Of a stretch of 64,000 bases of DNA, positions 3,266 through 46,995 are shown piece after piece (position 1 is the first letter of the stretch; every line of letters begins with the position of its first letter). A program made the translations under genes and the position numbers. This DNA is from a virus, in IMG/VR virus record IMGVR_UViG_3300025276_000022. The stretch is one strand, 5' to 3'. The notes beneath the pieces are model-generated. The model worked only from the letters and a program-made list of their open reading frames with translations. It made no database searches and had not been told where the DNA came from.

Positions 3266-3294
3266 TTGACTTTTGTTTCGAAAAGAGGTATAAT
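3266..3294 (+). promoter_or_regulatory. Early promoter of the TTGACTTTTGTTT cassette family
   Basis: TTGACT-17-TATAAT; near-identical to 45817-45845 and shares the GAGTTGAGAGAGA leader. Confidence 0.85.
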
Positions 3295-3332
3295 AGGTAC
3301 TTAGTTAATCGAGTTGAGAGAGAAAATATATT

Positions 3333-4820
3333 ATGATTGCGACGAACTCTACCCACATACATAAAATTGTTTGCGAAGAACTTGTGTCTAAATCTCATGA
3401 GGCGTACACCTACAAGTGGACTATCAAAGACCCTGATAGCAATAAAACCTATTTTTATGGTGGTCGCAGACATAACGAGTATCAGCCTAATGCGTATATG
3501 CATTCAAGTAAGAATGCTAAATTTCTTGACATTCTTAGTAAGAGTAAGGATGTAACATATGAGGTCACTTCTGTAGGTACTCATGAAGAGGCAGCGCTCG
3601 AAGAGGCTCGAATGTTAACAGACTCTAAAGCTAAGAGTTCAGAATATTGGTTTAACTCTACCAATGGTTTAGGTGGTAAAGGTGGTAAAGGTGTTGGTAA
3701 AACATTATTTTTAGACACTCTCACTAGTGAGATGAAACGTCTTATGAACGGTGAAGAAAACCTTAAACCAGACCAAGTCGGGCCTATGGGTATCACCAAG
3801 GGCAACTACTCAAAAGCAGATTTAAGAGATATTGTTGTTATCCGACAACAATTCGTACAAACGCGTTCATACCAATTTAATTCCTCTCACGTATCTACTT
3901 TGGCGGAAGGGTTTGATAAGAAATCTGACCCAAATGAATGGGAACCTATTGTCGTTCTTCTGGATGCTAAGGTAATAGATAACAAAGTAGTATATTGTGA
4001 CAAAGGTGGCGTAGTTGTTATTTCAGGTAATCACCGTTCGCGTGGTTTAGTACGTTCTACTAATGGAGTATCTTTGAATGCCTATAACATTCCCCATAAG
4101 TCTTGGGAAAAATTAGACGACATAGACATGAGAACGTTATCTAATAGATTTAACCCAAACCCTGAAAAACCTGTACTCAAGCAAGACCCTGAAGCGGCCG
4201 CAGCATGGGTCTTGGGTTGGTGTGAAAATAGAGGTCTAACAAAGATTGCTGATGATGGAGTTACAAAGATACCTGATATTAAACACTCCCTCGTTAAAAA
4301 GGAACTTATCGAAGTTAATAACTACACTCAGGGCGATTTCAATAGTGTTATAAAAGAGTGCCAGAAAAAAATCGAGAAACAATTTATAGCTGATGGAGAT
4401 AATATGCTAGATTGGGCAGACGCGGCTATGTCTCTAGACCCTGTCTTAGCTGGTACCCTTGACCATTATAAAACGAGGTTAATAGACGAAGGGCAACATA
4501 CCGATGTTTATAAGATTTCAGGTAAGGTTCTTAACTGGGGTAAACTCTCAGATAGGATTTATGATAAAAAACAATGCGAGATTAAGACCCATCATAACTT
4601 ATTGGTATTAGTGTACCATGCGACTAAGGAAGATATGAAGGAGTGTAAAAAGGGTCTATATAAAAAATGTAAAGTATTCTCAGATGATTTTATTGCGGGT
4701 AAACCAGACCGTAAAATTGAGTATATGCATCTGCCTATCACCAAGTCATACCTTCAATATAAAAGCCCGTTGAAGCTTGACTATGATATTGTTTGCGATA
4801 AACTAGTAGAAGGTTTGTAA
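3333..4820 (+). CDS. Seg-like GIY-YIG domain fused to a ParB/Srx-like domain
   Basis: N-terminal YTY..FYGG..YMHSS..E..WFNSTN pattern; central PIVVL..ISGNHR ParB-like motif. Confidence 0.6.
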   Translation: MIATNSTHIHKIVCEELVSKSHEAYTYKWTIKDPDSNKTYFYGGRRHNEYQPNAYMHSSKNAKFLDILSKSKDVTYEVTSVGTHEEAALEEARMLTDSKAKSSEYWFNSTNGLGGKGGKGVGKTLFLDTLTSEMKRLMNGEENLKPDQVGPMGITKGNYSKADLRDIVVIRQQFVQTRSYQFNSSHVSTLAEGFDKKSDPNEWEPIVVLLDAKVIDNKVVYCDKGGVVVISGNHRSRGLVRSTNGVSLNAYNIPHKSWEKLDDIDMRTLSNRFNPNPEKPVLKQDPEAAAAWVLGWCENRGLTKIADDGVTKIPDIKHSLVKKELIEVNNYTQGDFNSVIKECQKKIEKQFIADGDNMLDWADAAMSLDPVLAGTLDHYKTRLIDEGQHTDVYKISGKVLNWGKLSDRIYDKKQCEIKTHHNLLVLVYHATKEDMKECKKGLYKKCKVFSDDFIAGKPDRKIEYMHLPITKSYLQYKSPLKLDYDIVCDKLVEGL

Positions 4821-18543: not shown

Positions 18544-18800
18544 TGACAATCGATTATGCATCACTTCCAACAGGTTTATTCTCGGAAGACACGGACGTAG
18601 ATAATGCATATATATTATACGATCACACAGGCGGATTAATCTGTGTGTACGGTGACGCAGAACGGGCAATAGATCGTGCCGCAGAAGAGATCACCAAAGA
18701 TTACCAGTATGATACTGTACATGTTGATGTGTTCGATTGGGCAATCATGGTACGAAGTTCTATTGGAGAAATTACCATTTTAGTAGAAAAGATCTATTGA
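18543..18800 (+). CDS. Hypothetical protein
   Basis: GAGG ribosome-binding site; coupled to the upstream stop. Confidence 0.6.
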   Translation: MTIDYASLPTGLFSEDTDVDNAYILYDHTGGLICVYGDAERAIDRAAEEITKDYQYDTVHVDVFDWAIMVRSSIGEITILVEKIY

Positions 18801-18836
18801 CAGACCAGATCCTTTTTGTTATAATAGCCGAACAAT

Positions 18837-18912
18837 GTCCCGTTCGTCTAGAGGCCTAGGACACCGCCCTTTCACGGCGGTAACAGGGGTTCGACTCCCC
18901 TACGGGATGCCA
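18837..18912 (+). tRNA. tRNA-Glu (UUC)
   Basis: Cloverleaf, CCGCC-CTTTCAC-GGCGG, encoded CCA; promoter 18797-18825. Confidence 0.97.
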
Positions 18913-19142: not shown

Positions 19143-19194
19143 GCCTCTTGACAGACCAAGAAGTTTATAGTATAATAGAGTCTTAGTAAGTAAT

Positions 19195-19269
19195 TCCGAA
19201 GTAGCTCAGCGGTAGAGCAGTTGACTGTTAATCAATTGGTCGTTGGTTCGATCCCAACCTTCGGAGCCA
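19195..19269 (+). tRNA. tRNA-Asn (GUU)
   Basis: TCCGAAG/CTTCGGA acceptor stem, CTGTTAA loop, CCA; promoter 19148-19176. Confidence 0.97.
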
Positions 19270-21166: not shown

Positions 21167-21226
21167 ATATAATTTTCAAAAGACTTGACAGACGTATAAG
21201 TAAGTGTTACAATAGCTGTATTAAAT

Positions 21227-21314
21227 GGAGAGTTGGCAGAGTGGTCGAATGCACCTGACTTGAAATCAGACGAACCGCAAGGTTCCGTAGGTTCGAATCC
21301 TACACTCTCCGCCA
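21227..21314 (+). tRNA. tRNA-Ser (UGA anticodon)
   Basis: CTTGAAA loop, long variable arm, GCCA end; promoter 21185-21213. Confidence 0.95.
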
Positions 21315-23165: not shown

Positions 23166-24065
23166 ATGTTTTATGTTTTGTCTAGCCACAATATTTATGC
23201 ACTAAGACGACAATTTAACACACTGTCAAAAAATAATACTACGGTAATTATAAATACATTAAGCGATACGTTTCGAGAACAAGCAGAATCTTATTGTAAG
23301 GAAGAAGATCTTCGATACTTTATAACAGAGAGTGATGGAACTGCCGCTACTGGTAAGAACAGTTTCCTAGACCAGTTTGATAAAGACGGTGTGCCACATG
23401 CAGTATTGATTGATGGAGATGACTATCTAACACCAAGAGGTGTCCACTGTTATAAAAGAATGATGGGGAAGAAAGATAGTCCAGATGCTTTGATACTGTT
23501 TAATCAGGTATCCCTTATGTCACCTGATGATCAAAACACAGAAAGAACGCAATGTGAAAAAAGGCCACATGAAGATATAACCCATATGCCCAGGCATTAC
23601 ACCCAAGGTTCTGCTGTAGTAGATTGGGATTCCCTCGCACAAGGTGATTTGATAGTAGACAATGTCCCAGATGCAACCGAAGCTGATGTTGATATGTTTA
23701 GAAAATATATAACTTTACTTGGAAGTGGAATGGGGATAGATGAGTTGAGCACTCGACTAGTTTTTATGTCGAGGAAGGTAATACCTTACAGATTTAAAGA
23801 TTTAGTTGTTGGAGAGGACACCCTTCAATACTTAGAAGTAAAAGATGCCTTTGACCGCGGCGAACTAGTGATGGTCGCTCATGAAGAGTCTAAAGCACCT
23901 ACCTACATATACGATATACGAATATCAGGTATTGCAGTAAAGGAAAGTGGTCGAGCTCGAGGAAGAGGGGGTTTAACTTGGATGGCAAGACTACTAAAAG
24001 AATTAGAAAATTTACATGGGAAGAACAAGTTACATAACACAAGAGTTCCCATAACGGAGTTATAA
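23166..24065 (+). CDS. GT-A fold glycosyltransferase-like protein (paralog of 37992-38948)
   Basis: ITESDGT..TGKNS, IDGDD, VGEDT. Confidence 0.6.
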   Translation: MFYVLSSHNIYALRRQFNTLSKNNTTVIINTLSDTFREQAESYCKEEDLRYFITESDGTAATGKNSFLDQFDKDGVPHAVLIDGDDYLTPRGVHCYKRMMGKKDSPDALILFNQVSLMSPDDQNTERTQCEKRPHEDITHMPRHYTQGSAVVDWDSLAQGDLIVDNVPDATEADVDMFRKYITLLGSGMGIDELSTRLVFMSRKVIPYRFKDLVVGEDTLQYLEVKDAFDRGELVMVAHEESKAPTYIYDIRISGIAVKESGRARGRGGLTWMARLLKELENLHGKNKLHNTRVPITEL

Positions 24066-24110
24066 ATAAAGATACTCTGATACTAACACGAGAAGATTTC
24101 ATAGAGTAAT
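24059..24110 (+). repeat. 52-bp direct repeat, copy 2
   Basis: GTTATAAATAAAGATACTCTGATACTAACACGAGAAGATTT(C/T)ATAGAGTAAT. Confidence 0.95.
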
Positions 24111-24119
24111 AGCATTATT

Positions 24120-24193
24120 GGGGGAATAGTATAACGGGATTACTGCGCCCTTGCACGGCGTCGATCGGGGTTCGATTCCCCGTTCCTCCACCA
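24120..24193 (+). tRNA. tRNA-Ala (UGC)
   Basis: G3:U70 in GGGGGAA/TTCCTCC, CTTGCAC loop, CCA. Confidence 0.95.
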
Positions 24194-24194
24194 A

Positions 24195-24384
24195 TTTCCC
24201 CACTGTACGGGGCTCGGTACTACAGAGATGAACGTTGCGCTTTTAATAGCGCACTAACTTGGTAACTGCGATCTCTCAAACGTGCGTGTTATTAATACCA
24301 CGGCAGTCGGGAAACCACAATCCCAACAAGTTAAGGTTCACCAATCATAAAGTACCATTAAGAGCCCCGTACTCGTGGGGATCC
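24195..24384 (+). ncRNA. About 185-nt structured ncRNA
   Basis: Closing stem CCCCAC/GTGGGG + GTACGGGGCTC/GAGCCCCGTAC + GGTACT/AGTACC, with nested inner helices. Confidence 0.7.
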
Positions 24385-24482
24385 TTACGTGACTAATAAA
24401 GTGAAATGAGTCACCCATCGCCCTTGACAAATCTGTCCAAATCCTTTATAATGTAGTATATTAAATTGAATTGGATTATATT

Positions 24483-25202
24483 ATGTTTAAACATGTTCCC
24501 GTAGAACTGACTGAGATGACTGCTGTTACTACTGACACTGGTCGTCAATACGAAACCCCCGAAGGTATAACCTTACCTTCTATCACCACTGTTCTTTCTA
24601 TTCTCTCTCGCGACTCCATTGCTAAATGGCGTGCTCGTGTTGGTGAGAAAGAAGCTAACCGTGTCTCCTATCGCGCATCTACGCGTGGTACTGCGGTTCA
24701 CGAAATCTGTGAACAGTATGTCAATAACGATCCCGACTATGAAAAGTACATGGCCATCAATCCTGACAATGGTGAGATGAAGATGACTAAACGTACTCCC
24801 GATCTAATCGATTCCTTCCTAAAGATTAAACCAATCCTTGACGAACGTCTTACCCTTGTCCATGCACAAGAAGCACCTCTGTACTCTACCCATCTGGGTG
24901 TGGCAGGTCGTGTGGATTGCGTCGGTGTCTTCGACGGTAAGTTGTCGATCATTGACTACAAGACTTCTATGAAGCCTAAACGCCTTGACTGGATTAAGAA
25001 TTACTTCATGCAAGAGTCTGCATATGCAATTATGTGGGAAGAACGCACTGGAATGCCTATCACTCAGTTAGTGACCGTCATCTCTGTCGACAATCACGAA
25101 CCTCAAGTATTTGTTGAACACCGTGATAACTGGGTGCGTCCACTCCGTGATACTATTGCTCAATATAAAGAAGAAAATAGTGCTAATGCTCTTGACATAT
25201 AA
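24483..25202 (+). CDS. PD-(D/E)XK exonuclease (Cas4/RecB-like)
   Basis: PSITTVL, RGTAVH, AGRVD, IIDYKTS, Q.SAYA; promoter 24424-24452. Confidence 0.9.
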   Translation: MFKHVPVELTEMTAVTTDTGRQYETPEGITLPSITTVLSILSRDSIAKWRARVGEKEANRVSYRASTRGTAVHEICEQYVNNDPDYEKYMAINPDNGEMKMTKRTPDLIDSFLKIKPILDERLTLVHAQEAPLYSTHLGVAGRVDCVGVFDGKLSIIDYKTSMKPKRLDWIKNYFMQESAYAIMWEERTGMPITQLVTVISVDNHEPQVFVEHRDNWVRPLRDTIAQYKEENSANALDI

Positions 25203-45701: not shown

Positions 45702-45845
45702 ATTATATCATACTCGTTTTGAAAACGCAAGGCAATACAGCATTTTCTTTAGAACTTTTTGGCATATAGGGGTGGGCAACTATGCTTTATTGGTATAAAA
45801 ATAATAGTATAATGCCTTGACTTTTGTTTCGAAAACGAGTATAAT
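45702..45845. promoter_or_regulatory. Divergent early promoter pair
   Basis: Minus strand TTGCGT-17-TATAAT (45730-45702); plus strand TTGACT-17-TATAAT (45817-45845). Confidence 0.8.
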
Positions 45846-46176
45846 AGCTACATAAAGTCGAGTTGAGAGAGAGAATTGTTATGATGAAATTTGTATTGCG
45901 AAATGTTGTTAATGACCAGTTGATTGTTAATATGATGTTCGATACCGAAGCAGGTGCTATAGAGTACCGTGAATTGTTCACTGAGAAAGGAACTGCTTGG
46001 ATTGATTACTGTAAGGTTAGTTGGGAAAAATAATAGCTATATAAACTTGAGACGAGAGAGAATATTATGAGTGTAGAGAAAACTGTAACAACCACCACCC
46101 CCCAGCGGCAACTCACAAGCGCAGAGGCGATTGCGGTGTTCCGCAAAGCCCGCGCGGCCGCGAAGGAGAGAGCAGC

Positions 46177-46919: not shown

Positions 46920-46995
46920 TTAGCGAAATGCCTTGACTTTTGTTTTGATTACATGTATAATAGCTACATAAACTGATAAAGAGAGAGATTTGAAT

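Follow-up and report, generated by a model that had tools for sequence, protein, structure and literature searches.

A conserved structured RNA behind the last tRNA gene of marine T4-like phages, with a possible late role against early messages

The DNA that was analysed, from here on the window, is a stretch of 64,000 nucleotides from IMG/VR virus record IMGVR_UViG_3300025276_000022. Its source is an uncultured T4-like myovirus, belonging to a lineage of uncultured marine T4-like phages. The DNA polymerase encoded in the window is 73% identical to that of Phage C48C1 (Kyanoviridae, OQ984149.1) and 46% identical to those of cyanomyoviruses. In a DNA-level BLAST search of the window against GenBank phages the tRNAs were the sole match, and the nearest GenBank record, that of C48C1, was reached via proteins. 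Nothing pertinent was found in the literature on C48C1.

ARAGORN finds eight tRNA genes at 18.8-24.2 kb of the window, of which tRNA-Ala(TGC) is the last. The genes for tRNA-Glu, tRNA-Asn with tRNA-Leu, and tRNA-Ser (18797-18912, 19148-19269 and 21185-21314) stand directly behind sigma70-type early promoters, and within the island a T4-type late promoter motif is found at tRNA-Ala only. Because the late motif is restricted to tRNA-Ala while sigma70-type promoters precede the others, the data suggest that the phage tRNAs are expressed at different times. For the same reason tRNA-Ala and the RNA gene that follows it look like a separate late unit. In the window the exact motif TATAAATA occurs 12 times, against 4.4 expected, and 11 of the copies lie on the gene strand, mostly just ahead of genes. 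The exact motif is also present upstream of the tRNA in 24 of the 28 family members described below, in most of them about 17 nt away.

A gene for a structured RNA follows tRNA-Ala, and next to it lie a second hairpin, a perfect sigma70-type promoter and an exonuclease gene (Table 1). An earlier, sequence-only reading had proposed a highly paired noncoding RNA of about 185 nt at this place, behind a putative late promoter at 24061. The exact late motif is indeed there, and the RNA is confirmed by its folding energy, by the family models and by covariation. The fold of 24197-24381 (about 185 nt) has a minimum free energy of -82.3 kcal/mol, compared with -51.4 +/- 4.5 kcal/mol in 200 shuffled sequences (z -6.88). 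The many G-U pairs, together with far weaker scores on the minus strand, assign the RNA to the plus strand, that of the tRNA.

Table 1. Features of the RNA locus, in positions of the window; R1 and R2 are the covariance models described in the text.
Feature	Position	Strand	Details
T4-type late promoter motif TATAAATA	24061-24068	+	exact motif, 52 nt upstream of tRNA-Ala; putative promoter
tRNA-Ala	24120-24193	+	anticodon TGC, encoded CCA, G3:U70 pair; ARAGORN; Rfam tRNA 59 bits
Structured RNA gene	24195-24387	+	full match: R1 206.6 bits, E 8e-50; R2 167.2 bits
Closing rod, 5' strand	24197-24221	+	partner 24351-24381; 20/24 pairs changed on both sides
P1	24197-24203/24375-24381		7 bp
P2	24205-24215/24362-24372		11 bp
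P3	24216-24221/24351-24356		6 bp; P1, P2 and P3 form the closing stem of about 23-24 bp
P4, TGAAC/GTTCA	24229-24233/24336-24340	+	4/5 pairs covary
P5 hairpin, TGCGC/GCGCA	24236-24240/24249-24253	+	2/5 pairs covary
P6, TAACTTG/CAAGTTA	24255-24261/24327-24333	+	7/7 pairs covary
P7, CTGC/GCAG	24266-24269/24303-24306	+	4/4 pairs covary; closes the distal domain
Invariant loop GAUCUCUCAA	24270-24279	+	predicted single-stranded, closed by P7; candidate functional site
P8 hairpin	24281-24302	+	near-invariant flanks CG-GCAU ... AUGCC; from the alignment
P9 hairpin, GGGA/UCCC	24309-24312/24321-24324	+	optional, in 10/20 sequences; 3/4 pairs covary
Second hairpin (palindrome)	24389-24414	+	core TGAC...GTCA; few bases upstream of the -35 box; no U-run after it
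Sigma70-type promoter	24424-24452	+	TTGACA-17-TATAAT, perfect 12/12; predicted to drive the exonuclease gene
Exonuclease gene	24483-25202		matches PHROG 298 and the PD-(D/E)XK family

In general the RNA consists of a long closing rod and a branched interior. The rod is interrupted by a small internal loop and by a 3' bulge, which measures 4-6 nt across members and 5 nt in the window (24357-24361). It is followed by an internal loop, by P4 and by a three-way junction with P5 and P6, and then by P7. The domain beyond P7 holds the invariant loop, P8 and the optional P9. All the helices that the sequence-only reading had named are present in the sequence. The largest internal loop, of about 7 x 10 nt, is variable in sequence. 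In the window and in one homologue (L021), P8 is a variant with an extra outer CGUG/CACG stem.

Homologues were sought with the downstream PD-(D/E)XK exonuclease as anchor, and 80 related IMG/VR loci were fetched. About half of these have a tRNA 200-400 nt ahead of the exonuclease, with a spacer of the same fold but different sequences in the closing stem. A covariance model built from six close sequences (R1) matches 38 of 81 loci, C48C1 among them, over the full length and on a single strand, with E-values from 1e-55 to 1e-5. A broader model (R2) adds a variant behind tRNA-Asp. This variant (L013:2754-2925), with tRNA-Asp in place of tRNA-Ala, has no P5, and part of its 5' end is repeated ahead of it. 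A pattern on the invariant core matched 97 viral stretches, and 40 of the 80 returned as loci are true members. In all, homologues are found in about 40 IMG/VR contigs and in Phage C48C1. The same pattern gave no true member among the 80 matches listed in bacterial genomes, all of which are chance matches, and this speaks against a bacterial origin; among the matches listed in metagenome contigs, 78 of 80 are due to chance and two are true.

Across the family the RNA is 150-197 nt long. In every member it starts 1-12 nt past the last tRNA (21 nt in L013), on the same strand, and that tRNA is tRNA-Ala with the single exception of L013.

In the 28 distinct homologues the fold is kept through many compensatory changes. 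The fraction of paired cells is 95.4%, compared with 82.8% in shuffled sequences and about 32-53% when the partners are slid, and 37 of the 54 pairs are altered on both sides. RNAalifold, which was not given the structure of the model, returns the same architecture with 34 of 45 pairs compensatory; the alignment used there was fitted to the model, which favours the model's structure, but the covariation of the closing stem is plain in the raw sequences. Covariation backs all helices but one. The exception is the hairpin P8, where all pairs are invariant: its sequence is conserved, and covariation gives no proof of its pairing.

The loop next to P8 is invariant as well, UCUCUC being identical in 29 of 29 aligned members. 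Opening this loop is predicted to cost 0.06-2.6 kcal/mol in all 29. A pseudoknot that would otherwise occupy it, AGAGAT (24224) with ATCTCT (24271), had been suggested as possible from the sequence alone. Both strands do exist, but the 3' strand never varies and shows no compensatory change. The AGAGA/UCUCU pairing is 85% paired, and nine sequences lack one of its pairs. Further, G24227 covaries with C24341 instead (GC 18, UA 7, CG 2), extending P4. Covariation thus contradicts the pseudoknot.

A search of 23900-24600 against Rfam, at gathering score and E<=10, returned tRNAs and noise only, and with ARAGORN it agrees with the earlier observation that tmRNA, SRP and RNase P signatures are missing. 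The RNA is a new structured family that no described RNA family matches. That it is a real RNA, late and linked to a tRNA, is very probable.

An alternative is that the region codes for protein. A frame of 45 codons starting with TTG (24259-24396) was considered and ruled out, because homologues differ there by 1-2 nt indels and by the optional hairpin. In OQ984149.1 (L081:3755-3998) two small hypothetical CDSs are annotated between tRNA-Ala and the exonuclease gene; the first of them overlies the RNA gene, and the RNA itself has no annotation. In several clades (L062:2831-3000, L064:2826-3000, L068, L081:3828-3997) a short ORF lies between the RNA and the exonuclease gene. It encodes a hydrophobic, membrane-like peptide and has its own sigma70 promoter.

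The sigma70-type promoter after the RNA is an arrangement common to all homologous loci. Most clades have a GC-rich rod base with a U-run behind it, and only 8-45 nt later comes the next -35 box. In the subclade of the window there is no U-run behind the rod and no terminator is predicted there. The palindrome listed in Table 1 is found in this subclade only, in place of the U-run found elsewhere, and could be an operator or a weak terminator. At two loci, L001:2525-3000 (IMGVR_UViG_3300025874_000006) and L007, there are two copies of a segment made up of the RNA's 3' half, the promoter and the leader. The roughly 150 nt between the copies contain a promoter-like site of their own and a strong terminator hairpin, and may be a separate small RNA.

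The RNA goes together with the tRNA island. Genomes that carry it have 8-12 tRNAs, while in a 144-kb relative whose genome is complete there is one tRNA, and neither R1 nor R2 matches. The RNA-lacking relatives have ordinary genes upstream of the exonuclease, and no hidden copy was found elsewhere in them (one complete and three partial genomes searched). In another relative without the RNA the genes at about 17.8-24.4 kb of the window have no close counterpart, apart from a weak match of 30% identity and a DUF3310 homologue that is placed elsewhere. The RNA is thus part of a mobile tRNA island that is missing from related phages. Among the island genes without close counterpart in the otherwise syntenic G002 and G005 are a cell-wall hydrolase, small ORFs, a di-haem cytochrome c peroxidase/MauG-like gene, a 299-aa gene and the RNA. 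The peroxidase occurs in RNA-carrying genomes only. A protein partner was also sought through gene co-occurrence; the genes restricted to RNA-carrying genomes, a comparison confounded by relatedness, are mostly small unknowns and clade-specific structural genes, and no RNA-binding domain was found among them.

What could such an RNA do? A class of early phage genes has ribosome-binding sites of the UGAGAGA type, and the loop A-UCUCUC-A is complementary to these. With the common leader GAGUUGAGAGAG it is predicted to form duplexes of 7-11 bp at -10 to -15 kcal/mol. In the RNA-carrying genomes TTGAGAGA ranks 7th of all 8-mers between -25 and -3 of ORF starts, and a sigma70-like promoter is found at 21 of 51 TGAGAG starts compared with 104 of 3413 (odds ratio 22, p 4e-18). 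Only one of the 51 is tied to the late motif. In the window, leaders of the TGAGAG type stand for example behind the promoters at 3266 and 45817.

These leaders are found in recurrent early-gene cassettes (3266-3335, 45817-45876 and 46933-46992 in the window, also in G007-G010 and G002-G005), which consist of a near-consensus sigma70 promoter and a conserved leader ending in a GAGAG-rich ribosome-binding site. The cassettes often have AAUUGUUAUG at the start codon. We take this sequence to resemble the selection/target consensus of T4 RegA, which fits leaders under translational control. RegA (PF01818) is encoded in five of the five related genomes tested.

The match of the loop to a purine-rich ribosome-binding site is only modestly surprising given the base composition of the loop, at a few percent by a rough estimate. 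The leader target was sought after the loop had been seen. The enrichment of the loop complement is positional only, its counts in the window overall being at chance. Further, the leader motif is equally common in related phages without the RNA, so it does not depend on the RNA and may be a mere Shine-Dalgarno variant. Among early leaders the motif is found in 21 of 125 in RNA-carrying genomes and in 3 of 55 in RNA-lacking ones (p 0.055), a difference confounded by relatedness. Within genomes no co-variation was seen between the 3' extension of the loop and the leader variants, and some members pair over 7 bp only.

The reading that we put forward is as follows. Late in infection a precursor of tRNA-Ala and the RNA would be transcribed, and the cut that frees the 3' end of the tRNA, in the A/U-rich spacer of 1-12 nt, would also make the 5' end of the RNA. 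The rod would shield the RNA and, in most clades, end transcription just before the next early promoter. The working part would be the distal domain with its invariant, predicted-open A-UCUCUC-A(A) loop. This loop might pair with the UGAGAGA-type ribosome-binding sites of the recurrent early-promoter leader cassettes, and the pairing would help to shut off the translation of early messages late in infection, as an RNA counterpart of T4 RegA and RegB, the proteins that silence early messages in T4 (PMC3014915). We give the statement as a whole, a stable RNA of about 185 nt from a new family acting as a late riboregulator of early messages, a probability of about 0.3. The pairing of loop and leader taken alone is a tentative proposal with the odds against it, because the motif is present in RNA-lacking relatives, the difference between the two groups of genomes has a p-value of 0.055, loop and leaders do not co-vary, the overall counts are at chance and the target was sought post hoc. 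A T4-like phage would here have its first trans-acting regulatory RNA, a late transcript cut free from a tRNA precursor, which would silence the translation of early genes alongside RegA; we consider this doubtful.

The same invariant elements could serve a protein. In that case the loop and the bulged P8 would bind a protein of the host or the phage, such as ribosomal protein S1, Hfq, RegA, an RNase or RNA polymerase, which the RNA would titrate or recruit late in infection. It is in keeping with this that the invariant bases cluster in a single distal domain, and that P8 is kept in sequence rather than by covariation, as is often seen at sites contacted by proteins; the length, the closing rod and the late timing also loosely recall 6S RNA. 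On the other hand, no 6S, Y RNA, pRNA or other family with a protein partner is found at E<=10, the interior is branched, and its largest internal loop is variable. The RNA-carrying genomes searched encode neither TROVE/Ro60 nor ribosomal protein S21, and no RNA-binding domain was found among the proteins specific to the island. A distribution of RegA complementary to that of the RNA was considered and rejected, RegA being found both with and without the RNA, which also counts against it as the partner. We regard a protein decoy or scaffold as unlikely, and its special case, a 6S-like decoy of RNA polymerase, as having very little chance of being right. The idea that the internal loop mimics a late promoter with its 3' strand was dropped as well, because this strand is too variable. 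A function in cis only would need no partner in trans: the rod would end the late tRNA-Ala transcript, insulate the early promoter and protect the 3' side of the precursor, and the interior would be kept for recognition by a nuclease (RNase III or RNase E). The constant position at the boundary of late and early transcription speaks for such a processing and termination module, as do the GC-rich stem base and U-run of most clades, so close ahead of the next -35 box. But a terminator requires neither a conserved branched interior of about 110 nt nor an invariant open loop, and the subclade of the window has lost the U-run yet keeps the whole fold. This makes a cis-only module improbable in our view.

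Invariant unpaired bases framed by covarying helices are also what many ribozyme and aptamer cores look like, and the RNA begins where the tRNA must be cut free. The RNA might then have a compact tertiary fold, as a self-cleaving or other ribozyme or as a ligand-binding RNA, with the loop and P8 as its core. However, the RNA matches none of the known families of ribozymes or riboswitches, the length of the spacer that separates it from the tRNA varies between 1 and 12 nt, and the sole candidate tertiary pairing is the pseudoknot contradicted above. Since the exonuclease gene has its own promoter, there is also no downstream gene placed for control by the RNA. Such a fold is quite improbable. 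Still less credit goes to kinship with the T4 RNAs: the RNA could be homologous to T4 RNA C or RNA D, though diverged, and share their function, as it has the same place behind the last tRNA on the same strand, and as T4 RNAC and RNAD are late (PMC9697503) and a late motif precedes the unit here. Against this, the R1 model run with filters off on the T4 tRNA region gives at best 7.5 bits (E 0.1). Further, RNA C has a tRNA-like T arm, which the new RNA lacks, and RNA D folds no better than its shuffles.

If the late riboregulator reading holds and the loop acts on early leaders, T4-like phages, which abound in the sea, would have an RNA layer added to their early-to-late switch. A trans-acting RNA of this kind would also be a testable lead on what phage RNAs linked to tRNAs do, T4 RNAs C and D among them. 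With its strong constraint, its well-defined fold and one exposed element that never varies, the family offers a concrete handle that can be mutated in experiments. Even if the loop is inactive on leaders, the family merits an Rfam entry, which would improve annotation, for instance of OQ984149.1.

Among known RNAs, 6S RNA (RF00013 and related) is alike in length, in having its ends paired in a long interrupted stem, and in its proposed action at a switch of transcription programme. The likeness in size and ends had been noted from the sequence together with the reservation that the branched interior differs, and a decoy of sigma70 had been called conceivable. The reservation was right. 6S RNA is a rod without branches, in which conserved pairs flank a single large bubble at the centre, while the new RNA has two covarying junctions and no large central bubble. 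The decoy finds no support in the comparison, as no 6S covariance model matches 23900-24600 at gathering score or E<=10, and the conservation of the new RNA sits in the distal loop and P8 instead of around a central bubble.

Also comparable is the pRNA of phage phi29, which measures about 170 nt, pairs its 5' and 3' ends in a long helix and contains a three-way junction. There is no Rfam match to pRNA, and T4-type terminases are not known to need an RNA for packaging DNA. For Y RNA and YrlA no Rfam match was obtained either, and no TROVE domain was found in the four RNA-carrying phage genomes searched, in a search where control genomes gave matches; a Ro60 might still be supplied by the host. 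A tmRNA was rejected as well: ARAGORN finds none, and the permuted-tmRNA model scores 17 bits against a cut-off of 47, the match falling mainly on the T arm and 3' end of tRNA-Ala itself.

Bacterial and phage small RNAs that mask ribosome-binding sites by base pairing do so with an accessible, conserved seed that matches these sites in a class of genes. The new RNA has a candidate for such a seed, and it further resembles them in the terminator-like 3' end of most members. In these RNAs the seed lies at a free 5' end, whereas here the candidate seed lies in an internal loop of a large structured RNA.

The closest comparison is with phage T4. Its RNA C (species 1) and RNA D (species 2), encoded by rnaC and rnaD, are small stable RNAs behind the tRNA cluster that have been known for decades and have no function assigned (PMC3014915), and both are late RNAs (PMC9697503). 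In T4, RNA D and RNA C lie directly behind tRNA-Arg, the last of the cluster. The new RNA thus shares their placement, directly behind the last tRNA and on the same strand, and, with the late motif of its unit, probably their timing. The RNAs themselves show no homology in sequence or structure: those of T4 measure 139 and 119 nt, while the new one measures 150-197 nt and is built from a rod of about 24 bp and two junctions, with an invariant loop of pyrimidines. We see it as analogous to T4 RNAs C and D, with which no homology can be detected, and as a second, unrelated family in their genomic and probably temporal niche.
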